Shown piece by piece: positions 1 to 46,168 of a stretch of 47,081 nt of DNA. The notes beneath the pieces are model-generated. The model was not told the origin of the DNA, did not search any database, and saw nothing but the letters and a program-made list of their open reading frames with translations. This DNA is from Minisyncoccota bacterium. Its GTDB lineage: Bacteria > Patescibacteriota > Minisyncoccia > Phycocordibacterales > SBAW01. Position numbers and translations under genes: made by a program. The stretch spans positions 1 through 47,081 of the forward strand of contig DASZWN010000001.1 of assembly GCA_035546575.1 (NCBI GenBank), given 5' to 3'. Numbering within the stretch: the first letter of the stretch is position 1; each line of letters opens with the position of its first letter.

Positions 1-1066
<1,066 letters not shown>

Positions 1067-1358
1067 CCCTCTCTTTGCAGAGAAAAGAAGCTTGAGAACC
1101 GCAATAATTTGTTGTTGTTTACACACACGTGTCTACACGTGCATGTAATTTAATTTTGATTTTTACCTCCATCTCCACATCCTCGAAAAGACCCGCTTGG
1201 AAAGCGGTTGTGTGATGGATTTTAGTTGTCAAAGTCCGGGCCAAACAGATATCCCTTCGCATTAAAAAATCCCGCCTTCGCGGGACAACAAGCAACACTA
1301 AAGTCGCGTTATTATCGCCGCCTTGTGGATTGATTAATCAGTAACATCTGTACAAGAG

Positions 1359-20735: not shown

Positions 20736-22172
20736 TCAGTCTTTGCGCGGGAAAAGATTCTCCGGTTTTTTATTAGCTACGATTGCTTCTTTAAGGATAC
20801 GATTAGTCTCGGGCATAAACGGGTTGAGCATGCGGACGATTATATACAGCTCCTGTGTGAGCGCAAAAATAAGCTTCTTCCCCTCTTCGGGCTTATCTTT
20901 TACTACCTTAAATGGTTGCGTGTCGGTAATCTGCTGATCAAGCAGTTTGATACGCTCCCAGACAAAGTCGAGTGCGCGATTACTCTCGAACTTTTCGAGA
21001 GCCTCGGTATATTGCTTAGGAAACCCTACCGCCTCGGGTCGTGTACCTTCCCCAAGATGCGTCTGCGCAAGCTGCATGATACGTGCAGCCAAATTGCCGA
21101 TACCGTTGGCTAGGTCGGCATTGTAGGCAGCCTTAAAGCGCTCCATCGTAAAGTCGCTGTCATCAAACGGGTGTATGTGGCGCAGCAGGAAGTAACGCAA
21201 TGCGTCGATACCATACTCCTCGACAATTGCGAGCGGGTCGATAACATTGCCGAGCGATTTGCTCATCTTTTGTCCGCCGCTGGTGATAAAGCCGTGGTAG
21301 AGTACACGCCCTGTCTGTGGCAGCTCGGCCGACATAAGCATTGCCTGCCACATAACAGACTGGAATCGCACCTGATCTTTACCTGCTATCTGGAGCGTCT
21401 CACCGTCTTTCCAAAACTTTTTAAATAGCCCGTCTGTATCCTCCGGCCACCCAAGAGTGGAGATGTAGTTGGTGAGCGCATCAAACCACACATACATCAC
21501 CTGCGTGTCGTCGTCTGGCACCGGCACACCCCAGCTCATGCGCGAGGTTTCCCGCGAAATACTAAAGTCTTCGAGCCCAGCCTCAACAAACGTAATAGCC
21601 TCTTCTCTGCGCCAATCCGGGATAATAACGTCTTGTTTTTTGAGATAGTCGAGAACTTTGTCCTGATATGCGCTCAGTTTAAAAAAGTAGTTTTCCTCCT
21701 CGATCTCTACAGGAGTCAGGTTTGGGTGGTTGGGGCATCTGCCGTTTACCAAATCAGTTTCTTTAAGAAACATCTCATCACCCACGCAATACAGCCCCTT
21801 ATATTTCTTTTTATAAATATCACCCTTTGCAGCACAACGCTTCCATAGCTCTTGTGCTGCCGCCTTATGATGCGGGTTAGTGGTGCGGATAAAATGGAGG
21901 TCGCTATAGAGACCTAGTTTTTCTTTAAGCTCGCGGAATTTCGCTGCGTACTCGTCGACATAGCCTTGTGTCTCCTTCCCCTCCTCCGCAGCCTTCTGGA
22001 ATATTTTCTGGCCGTGCTCGTCGGTACCGGTGTTAAAAAAGACCTCTCTACCCATCAAAGTTTGGTAACGCACCAGCGCGTCCGCCTGTACCATCTCTAG
22101 CGCAAAGCCGATATGCGGCGCTGCATTTACGTACGGCAAGGTTGTCGTTAGGTAAAAAGGCTTTTTAGACAT
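20736..22172 (-). CDS. metG: Methionine--tRNA ligase (short form, no C-terminal tRNA-binding domain)
   Basis: MSKKPFYLTTTLPYVNAAPHIGFALE (HIGH-type motif) and KMSKSLGN. The start is set at the ATG at 22172. The ORF-track extension to 22325 overlaps the upstream gene and is not MetRS-like. Confidence 0.95.
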   Translation of the reverse strand: MSKKPFYLTTTLPYVNAAPHIGFALEMVQADALVRYQTLMGREVFFNTGTDEHGQKIFQKAAEEGKETQGYVDEYAAKFRELKEKLGLYSDLHFIRTTNPHHKAAAQELWKRCAAKGDIYKKKYKGLYCVGDEMFLKETDLVNGRCPNHPNLTPVEIEEENYFFKLSAYQDKVLDYLKKQDVIIPDWRREEAITFVEAGLEDFSISRETSRMSWGVPVPDDDTQVMYVWFDALTNYISTLGWPEDTDGLFKKFWKDGETLQIAGKDQVRFQSVMWQAMLMSAELPQTGRVLYHGFITSGGQKMSKSLGNVIDPLAIVEEYGIDALRYFLLRHIHPFDDSDFTMERFKAAYNADLANGIGNLAARIMQLAQTHLGEGTRPEAVGFPKQYTEALEKFESNRALDFVWERIKLLDQQITDTQPFKVVKDKPEEGKKLIFALTQELYIIVRMLNPFMPETNRILKEAIVANKKPENLFPRKD

Positions 22173-22182
22173 ATAGGTCAAC

Positions 22183-23250
22183 CTACCCCGCTGCCTTCTC
22201 CTGTGCAAGCTGGCGTGCCAGAGCGCGAGTCTTTTCTCGATCGACATCGGAGACAAACTCCTGTATTGCTCCCGCAATCGGCACCGAGAGGAGTACCCCG
22301 AGGAAGCCAAATAATTTAAAGCCAATGAGAAGCGCCAAAATAACCAAGAGCGGCGGCACGCCTACAACCTTTTTAACCACAACCGGATAGATGAGATGCG
22401 CCTCAAACTGCTGCACCAGCACGTAGAGGCCGACGACAAGCAGTGCCTCGGTAGCGCCGCCTGTACCAAAGGCGAGCGCAACAGCCGGGACCGCTGCGAT
22501 AAATTGCCCGAAGACCGGTATCAGCTCGCAGATGCCAGCGATAACCGCAAGCAAAAGCGCGTATGGCACGCCAAGGATCATAAGACCGAGATACAAGAGC
22601 ACTCCGACAATTACCGCGAGTATCAGTTGCCCTTGCATCCATTTGCCTATCTTTTCCTGGCTACGCTTCCAGAGGTGGAGTACGTAGGCCTGTTCCTTAA
22701 CTGGTGTTACCACGCGCAGGAAGTCATCGATACCTGTTTCTTGCACAGAAAAGTAGAACGAAAAGACGACAATAAGCACGAATGAAGTGACGCCGCCGAA
22801 TATTGCCGAGAGCGTGGTAAAGGCGCCACCAGTCGTGTCGGCAAGCGTTGACGAGAGATTTTTAAGGAGCTGCGCGGATGAAACCGTGTCGGCAACGCTC
22901 CCCCACGGCAAGAGCCCGTGTGTTGCGTCGGAGATATTGAGCGTGGTGAGAGTCTCGGGCAGTTTGTCGAGGAATGTAGCAGCGTCGGAGAGGACCGGCG
23001 GAATAAAGAGAAAGAGTACGGTAAACAAGACGGTGGCAACTCCCGCGTATATTGCGATAACACCCAAGAGACGGGGCACTCCGCGCCGCACAAATGCGTG
23101 TACTCCAGGCTCGATAGCTGAGGCGATAACCACAGCGGTAAGCACAATAAGCACCAAGTCGCGCAGATAAAAAACGAGTGCGGCAAGCACTATAACCAGC
23201 AGCGCCATAAAAAGGCTCGCTGGATTGATAGTGATGTTAAAATCCTTCAT
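22183..23250 (-). CDS. AI-2E family transporter (PerM/YhhT-like permease)
   Basis: 355 aa with about 8 TM helices and the family-typical C-terminal half (LILAVIVGVL...ELIPVFGQFIAAVPAVALAF...HLIYPVVVKKVVGVPPLLVILALLIG). Confidence 0.85.
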   Translation of the reverse strand: MKDFNITINPASLFMALLVIVLAALVFYLRDLVLIVLTAVVIASAIEPGVHAFVRRGVPRLLGVIAIYAGVATVLFTVLFLFIPPVLSDAATFLDKLPETLTTLNISDATHGLLPWGSVADTVSSAQLLKNLSSTLADTTGGAFTTLSAIFGGVTSFVLIVVFSFYFSVQETGIDDFLRVVTPVKEQAYVLHLWKRSQEKIGKWMQGQLILAVIVGVLLYLGLMILGVPYALLLAVIAGICELIPVFGQFIAAVPAVALAFGTGGATEALLVVGLYVLVQQFEAHLIYPVVVKKVVGVPPLLVILALLIGFKLFGFLGVLLSVPIAGAIQEFVSDVDREKTRALARQLAQEKAAG

Positions 23251-23259
23251 TCCCCTATC

Positions 23260-24081
23260 TTACACCCTTATCTTTTGTGATAGAAGCTTCGCGTTGCCTT
23301 GGCTGAGGAGACCTAGATACGAATTCCGAGTCGCTTCCGCTCTTTCTTGCCCTTTGCTCTCTTGCAATCGTTTAAACATTCTTCTCTTCGTGCTTGTGCG
23401 CAGCACGCGATGAGTTGGAAAATGCACCCAGCCAAGAAAGTCCACGCCAGAAGCAAAGGTTTTAATAAAAGTCTTATCCTGATGTAAAGTGAGTTTTAAT
23501 TGTTCTTTCAGAAACAGTTCCATATATGGAACTGTTTCTTGGAGCTCCTTTTTGTAATCAGACAGCAGCACAAAGTCATCCGCATACCGAATATAATACT
23601 TTGCCTTGAGTGTGTGCTTTACGAATTGGTCGAACTCGTTCATATAGATATTCACCAGAAGCTGTGACGTAAGATTGCCCAGCGGCAGGCCCACCTTCCC
23701 GCCAGCAAGGTTCGACCTTACTGAAAAGCTGCCGATGACTTGCCCTAGAAGCCAGAGAATGTCTTGGTCGGGTATGTACTTTTGTAGGATTTGGATAAGT
23801 ATGCCTTGGTCGATGCTCGCGAAGAACTTTTTGATGTCGCATTTGAGTACCCACACGGTACGGGTGTGGTTGCGCCCTCGCTTTCTCGCATATGCGAAAA
23901 ATTGAGTGAAGGCTTTGTGCGTGCCCTTCCCCACCCGGCAGGAGTAGGAGTCGGCAATAAAGGTGCGGCCAAAGAACGGATAGAGCTTGCGGTAGAGCGC
24001 ATGGTGTTGCCGGTCTTGGAGCGAGTCAAACAAGCCTATTTGCTCTGGCATGAGTACCATTCTACGCTGCCAAAAGTACAC
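23260..24081 (-). CDS. DGR-type reverse transcriptase (N-terminally short; possibly truncated)
   Basis: 273-aa ORF with RT motifs DRQHHAL, SYSCRVGKGTH, VLKCDIKKFFASID, the DGR-signature LPLGNLTSQLLVNIYMN (LGxxxSQ), and RYADDFVLL. The ORF opens with GTG. It has no convincing RBS, and upstream in frame there is only antisense avd sequence. Confidence 0.85.
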   Translation of the reverse strand: MYFWQRRMVLMPEQIGLFDSLQDRQHHALYRKLYPFFGRTFIADSYSCRVGKGTHKAFTQFFAYARKRGRNHTRTVWVLKCDIKKFFASIDQGILIQILQKYIPDQDILWLLGQVIGSFSVRSNLAGGKVGLPLGNLTSQLLVNIYMNEFDQFVKHTLKAKYYIRYADDFVLLSDYKKELQETVPYMELFLKEQLKLTLHQDKTFIKTFASGVDFLGWVHFPTHRVLRTSTKRRMFKRLQESKGQERAEATRNSYLGLLSQGNAKLLSQKIRV

Positions 24082-24378
24082 CGGTATACGATTGGAGAGA
24101 AAATTGACACCTTGTTTATTGAAATATTGGAGGCAATCTCAACAGCGGCATTTCTGTCGCGCGAAAAGAAAGTACCGTATATATTGCTTGGCTTACAAAA
24201 GCTTAATACGCTTACCTTATTACTCATGATTTTGTGGGAAACAAAGTCTCTGCGGGACAAAAGGTATATAGCTCTTTCGCTCCCACTCGATGAAATAGGA
24301 AGAATGCTCAATGGGTGGCAGGGTCAACTCCAAAAACAAAACTCCCCCGAAGCCGCGAGCCGGACGAGAGAGAAATGA
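24001..24378 (+). CDS. avd: Four-helix-bundle protein (23S rRNA IVS protein family; Avd-like DGR accessory protein)
   Basis: The C-terminal 126 aa of the 23791..24378 ORF are typical of the four-helix-bundle family to which Bordetella phage Avd belongs (VLERVKQAYLLWHEYHSTLPKVHRYTIGEKIDTLFIEILEAI...LQKLNTLTLLLMILWETKSL..KRYIALSLPLDEIGRMLNGWQ). The part upstream of 24001 is merely antisense to the RT gene. The start codon is uncertain. Confidence 0.75.
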   Translation: MVLPVLERVKQAYLLWHEYHSTLPKVHRYTIGEKIDTLFIEILEAISTAAFLSREKKVPYILLGLQKLNTLTLLLMILWETKSLRDKRYIALSLPLDEIGRMLNGWQGQLQKQNSPEAASRTREK

Positions 24379-24384
24379 AGAGAG

Positions 24385-24521
24385 TTGCGGAGACGGAACA
24401 CGACCGCGTTGTCGAGATTCCACTCGTTGTCCGGATTCGTCCAATTGGTGTTGAGCCACGGCTTGCCGTCATCGTTGTGCTTGACGTTGAACACGTTCGG
24501 GTTGCCATCGGAGTCGGTTAT
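24385..24521 (-). repeat. DGR template repeat (TR)
   Basis: 137 bp aligning without gaps to 24839-24975 (offset 454). In the VR reading frame it is rich in AAC/AAT codons (ITDSDGNPNVFNVKHNDDGKPWLNTNWTNPDNEWNLDNAVVFRLR). Confidence 0.9.
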
Positions 24522-24760
24522 GTACGAGGTGCCACCCGTACCACTGCCCCTTGAACACTCTTAGGACTGTATCTGATTCGACATCGTAATGCCTTAGCAC
24601 CTCGCACCAAGTATCTTCAATTTTTTGAAGTGTCTACATGCACCACTCTTTCTTCAACCACGGTCGAAGAAACTCTCGGCGCATGGATACTGGATTCGGC
24701 AGCGGACAGTCCTTGCCATCCGCATACTCGCCTACTACCAAGGTTAGTATATACGTAAAA

Positions 24761-24786
24761 TGGCCCCGCTCTTGCGAGCGGGGCCA
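24761..24786 (-). terminator. 11-bp GC-rich hairpin with a GCAA (GNRA) loop downstream of VR; target-gene terminator and/or DGR target-site hairpin
   Basis: TGGCCCCGCTC-ttgc-GAGCGGGGCCA on the plus strand. On the minus strand the loop is GCAA and the stem is followed by TTTTAC. It lies ~50 nt 3' of the VR end. Confidence 0.7.
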
Positions 24787-24834
24787 AAGGGTTAAGGGAC
24801 TAAGCGTGAGAGCTAAATCCCTAAGTGAGAAGGG

Positions 24835-25503
24835 CTACTTGCGGAGACGGAACACGACCGCGCCGTCGAGATCCCACCCGTTGTCCGGACCCGCCCAACT
24901 GGCGCCGAGCCACGGCCTGCCGCCATCGCTGCGCCCGACGCTGAACACGCTCGGGCGGCCACCGGAGTCGGTGATCTGCTTCATGGCGGTCCAGAAGTAA
25001 TCGCCGCGCAACTGGTCCTTGAGTTCCAGCCGGATAGCGGGTCCGTCGCCGGGCTCGCATAGGCTATGGCCGAGTTCGCGGATGCGCGCCCAGATTTGCG
25101 CGGTCGTCGGATTCTTGGTGAATCCGAGATCACGTATCGTGACGCGAGCGAACTTGACCGTCTCCTTCTTGCCGGGCTTCCAAGCGGGCTTGGACATGAT
25201 GTCCTTCGCCCAATCGGAAACAGAGCAGCCACTCGACTTGAGCTCCGCGAGGAGTTCGTCCTTCGACTTGCCGCCGACCTTGATCTCGAGATAGACCGGA
25301 AACACCGGTCCTCTCTGCGAGAACGTGCGGATGCCTTCGGCCAGGTACGCCGCAAAACCCTTGCTCTCGATCAGCAACTGCCCTGCCTCGTCGTCGAGGC
25401 CGGCCTTGTTGTACTGAGCGCGAAAAATCGCAACCGCTTCCTGCCCTTTGCGGCTATCAGCGGTCAGGGTGGTAGACGCTTTCAACGCTGTTCGCGTCGC
25501 CAT
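24835..25503 (-). CDS. DGR variable (target) protein with the VR in its C-terminal ~45 codons (C-type-lectin-like ending)
   Basis: The ATG at 25503 is preceded by AAGGAG; the TTG-opened ORF extends to 25521. The C-terminus is ...ITDSGGRPSVFSVGRSDGGRPWLGASWAGPDNGWDLDGAVVFRLRK*. No signal peptide is visible. The fold assignment is inferred from the W/G pattern and FRL ending common in DGR targets. Confidence 0.8.
   Translation of the reverse strand: MATRTALKASTTLTADSRKGQEAVAIFRAQYNKAGLDDEAGQLLIESKGFAAYLAEGIRTFSQRGPVFPVYLEIKVGGKSKDELLAELKSSGCSVSDWAKDIMSKPAWKPGKKETVKFARVTIRDLGFTKNPTTAQIWARIRELGHSLCEPGDGPAIRLELKDQLRGDYFWTAMKQITDSGGRPSVFSVGRSDGGRPWLGASWAGPDNGWDLDGAVVFRLRK
24839..24975 (-). repeat. 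DGR variable repeat (VR)
   Basis: 137 bp. By hand alignment there are 23 mismatches to TR, all at positions where TR (minus strand) has A. The last 24 nt at the 3' end are identical to TR, and homology stops 1 nt before the stop codon. Confidence 0.9.
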
Positions 25504-25575
25504 CGTCAGTCTCCTTCTCAAAGAGCCGATACGGAAAGCTCAGGCAGAATGCCCGGGTCCGTCAGCTACTTATAA

Positions 25576-26913
25576 TTATACTCCTTTTATAGCAGAAGTC
25601 AAGTACCCTGAAAGCTCTTGTACTGTAAGGCGCTTTTGCTCGCCGGTGTCTCTATCGCGCACGGTTACGGTGTCTTTAAGCTCGGGCTTTTCGCCAAGCG
25701 TGTCGAAGTCGATCGTGATGCACCACGGCGTGCCTATTTCGTCTTGGCGGCGATAGCGCTTGCCCACGTTGCCGTTGTCATCAAATACAATCTGCGGGAT
25801 CTCTTTCTTGAGCATCGCGTAAATCTCGCGAGCCTTAGCTACAAGCTCGGGCTTATTTTTGAGGAGCGGAAAGACTGCGGCCTTAATAGGCGCTACAGCG
25901 GGAGCGAATTTGAGATACGTGCGAGTCTCACCGCCCAGAGTGTCTTCTGTGTATGCGCTTGCAAGGACTGCGAGTACCGTTCGGTCTACACCAAGCGACG
26001 GCTCAATTACATGCGGCACAAAAGGCTCTTCGCCCTCATCTCGGTACGAGAGGTCTTTTGCAGATCCCCTGGCATGGGCCGAAAGATCAAAGTCGGTACG
26101 ATATGCCAAGCCGTAGAGCTCTTTGCGGCCAAACGGAAAGTCGAACTCAAAGTCGATCGTGCGTTTAGAGTAATGTGCTCGATCTCCATCGGCAACCTCT
26201 AATTCATGCACCGCATCTTTTTTGATACCGACTGCCAAAATAAAATTGAGTATTACCTGGCGCCATTCCTCAAACTTCCCTTCCCAATCAGATGGGCGTA
26301 CAAAGTATTCAACCTCCATCTGCTCGAACTCGCGCGAGCGGAACACGAAGTCGCGCGGCGCTATTTCGTTGCGGAATGCTTTGCCGATCTGCGCCAAACC
26401 GAACGGAAGTTTTGGGTGCAAAGCGTCGAGCACATTCTTAAAGTTAACAAACATGCCACCCGCAGTCTCGGGGCGCAAGTACGATACGCTCGACTCGTCT
26501 TCGGTAGCGCCAACATGCGTCTTAAACATCATGTTGAACTGGCGTGCCTCTCCCAATTTGCCTCCGCAATCTGGACAGATACTCCCCTCTACATGGTCGG
26601 CGCGGAAACGGTGTCTGCATTTTGCGCACTCAACTAATGGATCGGAAAATCCGCTCACATGTCCTGAGGATTCCCACACCCTTGGGTGCATGAGTATTGC
26701 AGCATCTACCCCATACATGTCGTCGCGCGAGTCGACAAACATCTTCCACCATATGTTTTTTATATTGTTCTTGAGCGCAACGCCAAGAGGCCCGTAGTCC
26801 CAGGTGCCGGCCAAACCGCCGTAGATTTCTGACCCTTGGAATACAAACCCGCGGCGCTTGCACAGCGAGATTATTTTTTCCATCAAATCCATCTGATTTT
26901 CTTCCTGGGCCAT
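25576..26913 (-). CDS. glyQS: Glycine--tRNA ligase (homodimeric class II type)
   Basis: 445 aa: ISLCKRRGFVFQGSEIYGGLAGTWDYGPLG, FRNEIAPRDFVFRSREFEQMEVEYF, and a C-terminal anticodon-binding domain. Confidence 0.96.
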   Translation of the reverse strand: MAQEENQMDLMEKIISLCKRRGFVFQGSEIYGGLAGTWDYGPLGVALKNNIKNIWWKMFVDSRDDMYGVDAAILMHPRVWESSGHVSGFSDPLVECAKCRHRFRADHVEGSICPDCGGKLGEARQFNMMFKTHVGATEDESSVSYLRPETAGGMFVNFKNVLDALHPKLPFGLAQIGKAFRNEIAPRDFVFRSREFEQMEVEYFVRPSDWEGKFEEWRQVILNFILAVGIKKDAVHELEVADGDRAHYSKRTIDFEFDFPFGRKELYGLAYRTDFDLSAHARGSAKDLSYRDEGEEPFVPHVIEPSLGVDRTVLAVLASAYTEDTLGGETRTYLKFAPAVAPIKAAVFPLLKNKPELVAKAREIYAMLKKEIPQIVFDDNGNVGKRYRRQDEIGTPWCITIDFDTLGEKPELKDTVTVRDRDTGEQKRLTVQELSGYLTSAIKGV

Positions 26914-46063: not shown

Positions 46064-46095
46064 ACCACATTCAGTCTAGCACTCTACGTTCTCTG

Positions 46096-46168
46096 GGCGG
46101 CTACAGGGAATCGAACCCTGATCGAGAGCTCCACAAGCTCCAGTGTTAACCGTTACACCATAGCCGCC
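46096..46168 (-). tRNA. tRNA-His (anticodon GTG) with a genomically encoded G-1; CCA not fully encoded
   Basis: Hand fold of the minus strand: G(-1), GCGGCTA, TG, GTGT-aacggtta-ACAC, T, GGAGC-ttGTGga-GCTCT, cgat, CAGGG-ttcgatt-CCCTG, TAGCCGC, C73. It gives a perfect acceptor stem, a G-1:C73 pair, U33 and a purine at 37. Confidence 0.9.

Follow-up and report, generated by a model that had tools for sequence, protein, structure and literature searches.

Whether a diversity-generating retroelement (DGR) that has visibly rewritten its target gene is still able to do so is the question raised by the locus described here. The locus lies in a stretch of 47,081 nucleotides (the window) of contig DASZWN010000001.1, assembly GCA_035546575.1, from a Minisyncoccota bacterium, and it contains a template repeat (TR), a variable repeat (VR) at the end of a target gene, the accessory gene avd and a gene for a reverse transcriptase (RT). 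We think, with a probability of roughly three in four, that it is a DGR cassette of architecture B3 in which a deletion of ~279 bp at the divergent avd/RT junction left the RT dead and the VR frozen, and that this loss is recent. What we infer in this reading is that the RT is no longer active, that the RNA elements serve in priming and stopping, and that the deletion is recent.

The TR is an intergenic sequence of 137 nt on the minus strand (24385..24521). The VR, also of 137 nt (24839..24975, minus strand), forms the last 45 codons of the target gene, an open reading frame (ORF) of 222 aa at 24835..25503 on the minus strand. A repeat finder, for which this was the single long direct repeat in the region, aligned the two copies without a gap over 137 nt at an offset of 454, with 83% identity. 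The base-by-base tabulation showed 23 differences, and in each of them the plus strand has T in the TR and either C (21) or G (2) in the VR. That is, on the coding (minus) strand the changes from TR to VR were A to G in 21 cases, A to C in two and A to T in none. The TR contains 39 adenines, 23 of which were substituted, and the number of mismatches at the 98 non-adenine positions was zero. The probability that 23 of 23 mismatches fall on 39 adenine positions by chance is 4.9e-16 (hypergeometric).

A first-pass annotation, made from the sequence letters alone, had given these repeat coordinates, the offset of 454 and 23 mismatches confined to template adenines, and the tabulation by TR base reproduced all of them exactly. 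Its estimate that about 23 of about 39 template adenines are substituted became a count of 23/39. The annotation had also assigned the VR to about the last 45 codons of a 222-aa ORF and had described the template in the same frame as rich in AAC/AAT codons; the ORF at 24835-25503(-) and both translations were as it gave them. We found that 38 of the 39 TR adenines are at codon position 1 or 2 of the target frame, mostly in AAC, AAT, AAG and GAC codons. The last 23 nt are identical between the TR and the VR, including two unchanged adenines, and the homology stops at ...CCGCAA. No further VR-like copy matching the non-adenine positions of the TR was present in the 47-kb window.

A pair of this kind might be explained by ordinary duplication followed by strand-specific C-to-T deamination of one copy, with no reverse transcription at all. 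The 21 of 23 differences that are T-versus-C on the plus strand fit this explanation, but in the other two T stands against G, nearly all substituted sites are at codon positions 1-2 of AAY-type codons, and a DGR-type RT and Avd flank the template copy. The related cassettes with the same layout are also hard to reconcile with it. In 8 of them pooled, the spectrum was 115 G, 35 C and 33 T (63% G), and A-to-T and A-to-C changes thus made up 37% of the substitutions. The TR/VR differences were all at adenines in L005 (19/19), L009 (17/17), L015 (28/28) and L017 (18/18), and nearly all in L001 (23/24) and L006 (27/28). Moreover, there are relatives with many VR alleles within one population on otherwise identical proteins, which deamination of a template copy could not produce. 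The deamination origin has a negligible probability, and it is effectively refuted by the codon-position pattern, the TR/VR pairs of the relatives and the VR alleles. The TR/VR pair is the product of adenine-specific mutagenic retrohoming by a DGR. The origin that the annotation proposed thus stands, on the 23/23 mismatches at adenines, the DGR-type RT and the adenine-specific pairs of the relatives.

The VR alleles were seen in two protein clusters at 90% identity, P0141 (15 members) and P0202 (13 members). Residues 1-179 are identical or nearly so within each cluster, and the members vary at fixed positions of the last 45 residues, in mosaic combinations. These mosaic alleles suggest partial-length retrohoming or recombination between alleles. 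Judging from the protein sequences, the target family is actively diversified in nature. One allele, P0251, consists of the 5' VR half of P0248 and the 3' VR half of P0247. The 90%-identity cluster of the target protein of the window has one member. A TR pattern with N at the adenines gave 0 matches in JGI metagenome contigs and GTDB genomes.

The RT of the window, taken as an open frame, occupies 23260-24081 on the minus strand (273 aa) and runs up to a GTG at 24081 through sequence antisense to avd. It matches Pfam RVT_1 and carries the motifs LGNLTSQ and YADD. Its best PDB match was the Bordetella phage RT, bRT (8ub7, E 1e-25), as compared with 4e-15 for group II intron RTs, and the alignment with bRT begins only at bRT residue 82. 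Its closest homologs are found in cassettes that have TR/VR pairs. The nearest RT homologs (63-74% identity, mostly 290-350 aa), eight of which were aligned with the window RT, keep ~75 more N-terminal residues. The N-terminal consensus of these homologs, Y.DIISVENLL..W..F..GK..K.DV..F......SDPKPRDIHKASVRDR, is absent from the window RT; the first 21 residues of its ORF are unrelated to it and are the antisense of avd. When the full-length relative P0002 was used in tblastn, only residues 95-340 were covered in the window and residues 1-94 were absent. The same protein was covered from residue 1-22 onward in 8/8 of the RT-containing relatives found through the target family. The RT remnant is thus located at 23260..24006 on the minus strand and corresponds to approximately residues 95-340 of full-length relatives. 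The missing part amounts to ~93 codons and comprises the N-terminal extension, motif 1 (SDPKPRDIHKA) and most of motif 2. Motif 1 of RTs is part of the finger subdomain. A very permissive tblastn search of the whole window found no RT N-terminus encoded elsewhere in it, and for the window RT as called (P0001) there was no encoding contig on record.

The deletion was placed by aligning the DNA of the window with that of L001 (from JGI), the closest cassette. The spacer, TR, avd and RT of the two cassettes are co-linear, with a single gap of ~279 bp in the window. The junction lies at 24006..24007: the sequence up to and including 24006 is RT-derived, and the sequence from 24007 onward is avd-derived. 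The match of the Avd hidden Markov model starts at nt 24007, right at the junction, and the present ATG GTG of avd is the antisense of the His-His codons of the RT.

The sequence comes from a metagenome assembly, and the deletion is found where two genes overlap head to head. Both facts could be taken to mean that the truncation of the RT arose in assembly, or that it is a variant carried by a minority while the real population has an intact RT. However, a Logan contig from an independent assembly (L002, SRR12170516) runs across the junction and matches the window at 100% identity over 4876 bp. Because this contig is identical across the junction, the deletion is probably genuine, and it is probably not an assembly accident. 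In addition, no intact version of the window RT above 74% identity was found among 5.8 billion clustered proteins. We therefore consider an artefact or a minority variant to be very improbable. A second Logan contig (L003, SRR12170517, 1265 bp) likewise matches the window at 100% identity; it covers 24502-25766, that is, the target gene and the VR, and not the junction. As far as the assemblies show, the window, L002 and L003 share one VR sequence.

We examined a further 80 relatives of the RT, taken from GTDB species representatives, counting as assessable those with enough upstream DNA, and only 1 of ~68 assessable relatives, L057, had an N-terminally truncated RT. The region 2091-3232 of L057 is a second decayed cassette of the same clade, and it is more heavily degraded: its RT starts from residue ~72, and only Avd residues 67-113 are left. 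The model of the TR leader described below reaches only to the avd remnant in L057, and the TR has apparently been lost.

A cryo-electron microscopy study of the bRT-Avd complex showed that the N-terminal extension of bRT makes contact with Avd (bioRxiv 10.1101/2023.10.23.563531). Having lost this Avd-binding extension together with finger motifs 1-2, the RT copy of the window would be inactive. The annotation had named decay elsewhere in the cassette as an argument against an active element; the loss of ~93 N-terminal codons from the RT is decay of exactly this kind, and on this point the annotation needs correction. Its statement that an RT and an Avd gene lie near the template was correct in part. 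Both are present, and the RT has LGNLTSQ and YADD, but the annotation missed the N-terminal truncation and the location of avd on the plus strand, overlapping the start of the RT ORF.

We propose the following course of events. According to the Bordetella phage paradigm, the leader-TR RNA would have been bound by the RT-Avd complex, and by analogy with the Bordetella ribonucleoprotein (RNP) the leader may have scaffolded this complex. Synthesis of cDNA would have been primed near the 3' end of the TR, with misincorporation opposite adenines, and a 12-bp helix that abuts the 5' end of the TR probably stopped it. The cDNA would then have replaced the VR, rewriting up to 21 codons of a putative C-type-lectin-like binding surface. 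At least one past retrohoming event is recorded in the TR/VR pair. Later, the deletion of ~279 bp would have taken the N-terminal extension and finger motifs 1-2 of the RT, leaving the VR at its present sequence. We think that this loss is likely to be recent, because the rest of the cassette is intact and the TR and the VR have no differences at non-adenine positions.

A different view is that the cassette is still an active DGR, because the shortened RT works or because the TR is served in trans by a full-length RT that belongs to another DGR of the genome. Several observations speak for this view: the leader is intact (224 bits), the TR and VR show no non-adenine differences, the Avd match is full-length, and the RT has kept an open frame and its catalytic motifs. 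In favor of supply in trans, the genomes of three relatives carry two DGRs of the same clade. However, what is missing from the window RT, that is, motif 1, most of motif 2 and the Avd-binding N-terminal extension, is kept by all but one of the assessable relatives. No VR variant of the window gene was seen across three assemblies and two public collections, and use in trans would need a foreign RT-Avd that recognises the leader-TR RNA of the window. We therefore regard continued activity as unlikely, although clearly less so than an artefact.

The relatives with two DGR cassettes of the same RT clade in one metagenome-assembled genome (MAG) are L035 and L040 (CAIJKW01), L037 and L063 (CAYHDT01), and L034 and L070 (CAYGEV01). 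Cross-use of RTs between the cassettes of these MAGs is conceivable.

Several points count against our preferred reading of a dead RT and a frozen VR. First, despite the truncation the RT still has an open frame of 273 codons in which all palm motifs are preserved, which is also expected if some function has been kept. Second, the window represents 47 kb of a 287-kb contig, and the genome could encode another DGR RT, outside the window, that acts in trans. Third, data at the assembly level may be compatible with VR variants at low frequency or with a subpopulation that has an intact RT. Fourth, Avd scored below the cutoffs of both family models: it matched positions 1-103 of the 104 positions of NCBIfam DivGenRetAVD with 48 bits (cutoff 80) and Pfam bAvd with 34.9 bits (cutoff 40). 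Finally, the substitutions in the window (21 G, 2 C, 0 T) lean significantly more towards G than those of the 8 pooled relatives (Fisher P 0.005). As a result of this bias, the replacements in the VR are only of Gly/Ser/Arg/Ala/Asp type, with no aromatic residues.

If the RT is dead, as we think, the window would contain a natural knock-out of the Avd-binding N-terminus of the RT in an otherwise intact cassette, that is, a snapshot of the fixation of a DGR target. A population with a frozen VR would also be a control for the cost or gain of a fixed VR to the host.

The noncoding DNA on the 5' side of the TR contains a structured, strongly covarying RNA element, which we call the leader (24522..24742, minus strand; ~228 nt, 7 helices), defined by covariation and a covariance model. 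It sits between the terminator of the target gene and the TR, ending on the base before the TR, and a -10-like box, TATACT (~24726-24731), is at its 5' edge. Its terminal helix of 12 bp pairs 24596-24607 with 24522-24533 and abuts the first base of the TR. When 9 loci were analyzed with RNAalifold, 42 pairs were obtained, 33 of them with compensatory changes, and 95% of the alignment cells could pair. As controls, only 39-49% of the cells paired when the partners were slid, and 0 of 500 shuffles reached the observed values.

A covariance model built for the leader (R1, 228 positions) matched the window at 24514-24742(-) with 224 bits. It gave exactly one match in 79/80 of the sources searched (the window and 78 of 79 other loci among L001-L099), and the matches were always on the RT/TR strand and always ended at the TR. 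In the resulting alignment of 79 sequences, which was fitted to the covariance model and therefore favours the structure, 96.4% of the cells pair and 40/42 pairs change on both sides. The number of cells with a double change was 970 in this alignment, as compared with 115-239 in the slid controls. A scan of the cassette against Rfam 15 at E<=1 gave no match to the leader; the only matches were noise on the terminator region.

It is possible, though we hold this only tentatively, that the leader is a previously undescribed RNA component of B3-type DGRs of the candidate phyla radiation (CPR). It would then be a counterpart of the Bordetella Sp RNA on the 5' side of the template, scaffolding RT-Avd, with the 12-bp terminal helix setting the stop of cDNA synthesis, and the window would represent an "RT-dead, RNA-intact" state. 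Should the leader be the RNA scaffold on which the B3-type RNP is built, it would become possible to test directly how reverse transcription works in the cellular class of DGRs that is most abundant. We consider the leader RNA to be the most interesting by-product of this study and the one most worth follow-up.

On the other side of the TR, folding of individual loci indicated a second RNA element (24325..24387, minus strand), which is antisense to the 3' end of avd. It consists of an 8-bp stem-loop (24342-24372), a U-rich stretch and a segment able to pair with the 3' end of the TR. A stem of 7-9 bp, mostly with a tetraloop, was found after the TR in all 6 loci that were folded singly. The outer helix gave moderate alignment-based pair counts in an alignment that is out of register, and it is a helix candidate only. 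The loop of the window has a 9-nt insertion (~24347-24361, minus strand) that is present in none of ten aligned relatives. The insertion is in frame for avd and adds three residues to the tail of Avd. Stem-loops that bind Avd have been described just downstream of the TR in 207 of 278 DGRs, CPR included (bioRxiv 10.1101/2023.10.23.563531), and the post-TR element of the window, as predicted, matches this description.

Two hairpins follow the VR. The nearer one (24795..24822, minus strand), seen in DNA folds of the window, L005, L006 and L009, begins ~17 nt downstream of the VR and is a candidate target-recognition element. The farther one (24761..24786, minus strand), ~55 nt from the VR end, is a GC-rich hairpin of 11 bp with a GCAA tetraloop and a T-run. 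It is the intrinsic terminator of the target gene, and possibly the DGR cruciform too. The arrangement of two hairpins after the VR is also found in relatives, with different sequences. Upstream of the target gene there is a promoter-like site, TTGACT-16-TATAAT (25575..25602, minus strand), which is a consensus match only.

The target protein has an N-terminal helical region of ~65 aa, followed by a conserved domain of ~155 aa that ends in the VR, and it has no signal peptide or transmembrane segment. Neither the single sequence nor a profile of 45 sequences gave a sequence match in Pfam, NCBIfam or PDB. The annotation, which recognised no family in the N-terminal ~175 aa of the target and took it for a probably ligand-binding protein, was right in that the target is of the ligand-binding type and has no match in these databases; the protein is not isolated, however, and belongs to a very large family of CPR targets. 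A word-indexed search gave 110 homologs at E<=1e-3, 0 of which have a functional name and 0 a Pfam domain, and an exhaustive profile search gave at least 5138 clusters, formed at 50% identity, of which 3040 were found at 1e-10. The region common to the family is at profile positions ~62-220, that is, the C-terminal domain of ~155 aa. The members are either stand-alone proteins of 150-230 aa or carry the domain at the C-terminus of proteins of up to 735 aa. A PcfJ-like domain is present in one of these longer proteins, a combination that was also listed for CPR targets by Wu et al. (PMC5758913). CPR targets without recognisable domains have already been described collectively (PMC8144416, PMC5758913). 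The family of at least 5138 clusters, for which there is no Pfam model, deserves a family definition of its own. The L001 cassette has an unrelated target, and hhalign found no relationship between it and the target family.

The fold of the target protein was predicted with AlphaFold2. The whole-protein model had a pLDDT (predicted local distance difference test) score of 86, with residues 70-222 mostly above 90, and in Foldseek it gave no significant match in PDB or BFVD, with only weak matches to C-type lectin-like domains. When residues 100-222 were modelled alone (pLDDT 75), the great majority of the top 50 PDB matches in Foldseek were C-type lectin-like domains, including Mincle, DCIR, BDCA2, CLEC-2, NKR-P1A, Langerin and Dectin-1. 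These matches covered the whole domain with template modeling (TM) scores of 0.45-0.52 and probabilities up to 0.85, and none reached E<0.001, the best being E 0.07. Thus, the C-type-lectin fold that the annotation had proposed to look for at the C-terminus is what the domain-only model mostly matches, and significance at E<0.001 was not attained. From these models, the last ~120 aa of the target are likely to form a C-type-lectin-like scaffold. Like Mtd, TvpA, TaqVP and archaeal AvpA, the target is predicted to have its VR on the C-terminal strands of a beta-alpha-alpha-beta-beta-beta-beta domain. It differs from them in having no detectable sequence similarity to solved structures or Pfam families, and no solved DGR variable protein was among the top 50 Foldseek matches of the domain-only model.

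The G+C content at third codon positions (GC3) of the non-VR part of the target gene (24976-25503) was 0.77, and those of the genes for RT, avd, methionyl-tRNA synthetase (MetRS), the permease and glycyl-tRNA synthetase (GlyRS) were 0.51-0.60. A similar offset of the target gene was observed in L004 (0.64 vs 0.39), L005 and L009. Avoidance of adenine as the cause of the high GC3 was rejected, as A and T at the third position are equally depleted. Target homologs with no RT, avd or TR within flanks of ~4 kb were found in L007, L010, L011, L012, L013 and L016, some of these flanks being shortened by contig ends. These homologs may be orphan or remote targets.

With regard to the layout of the cassette, avd (125 aa; 24001..24378, plus strand) lies between the TR and the RT and is encoded on the other strand. 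At its start it overlaps the first part of the RT ORF, and 6 nt separate its stop codon from the TR. The Avd of the window is 73% identical to that of L001, and the position and orientation of avd are the same in every assessable relative. Along the minus strand, the target/VR is followed by a spacer of ~320 nt, then by the TR, inverted avd and the RT. The same order is found in L001, L004, L005, L006, L009, L014, L017 and L018, partly in L008 and L015, and also in ~68 of the 80 extra loci. There are at least 566 relatives in GTDB species representatives, and the relatives are nearly all MAGs labelled Patescibacteria or CPR lineages.

Wu et al. 2018 (PMC5758913) reported that architecture B3, "TR-(avd)-RT", accounts for 90% of CPR DGRs, and DGR clade 2 was described by Roux et al. 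2021 (PMC8144416). The cassette of the window is a chromosomal CPR (Patescibacteria) DGR of architecture B3 / clade 2 and a routine member of a very abundant class. Such DGRs are extremely common in Patescibacteria, so that a further example changes little. It shares with the CPR B3 DGRs the way in which its parts (target/VR, TR, inverted avd, RT) are ordered and oriented, an RT that is 57-74% identical to hundreds of Patescibacteria RTs, a small target with no recognisable domain and no signal peptide or transmembrane segment, and a site among housekeeping genes. In contrast to them, its RT is without the first ~93 codons, its post-TR stem-loop has the 9-nt insertion, and no VR variants were seen.

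We also compared the cassette with the DGR of Bordetella phage BPP-1 (mtd-avd-TR-Sp-brt). Both have adenine-specific transfer from TR to VR and an Avd accessory protein. The window RT is closest to bRT (8ub7, 1e-25), and the motifs [ILV]GxxxSQ and YxDD are common to the two. The VR is at the C-terminus of a C-type-lectin-like domain, which is a predicted one in the window, and in both elements a stem-loop directly follows the TR and a GC-rich hairpin with a tetraloop lies beyond the VR. In contrast, avd of the window is on the opposite strand, between TR and RT. The window has a structured RNA of 228 nt on the 5' side of the TR, whereas BPP-1 has its 140-nt Sp on the 3' side, and the GC hairpin, adjacent to the VR end in BPP-1, lies ~55 nt away from it in the window. 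Furthermore, the host of the window element is cellular, the element is not in a phage, and its RT is truncated.

The neighbouring genes are those for MetRS (20736-22325), an AI-2E-type permease (22183-23250) and GlyRS (25576-26913). The window starts inside a 23S rRNA gene (1-1071, minus strand; model positions 1-1028), and a tRNA-His gene is located at 46095-46167 on the minus strand.

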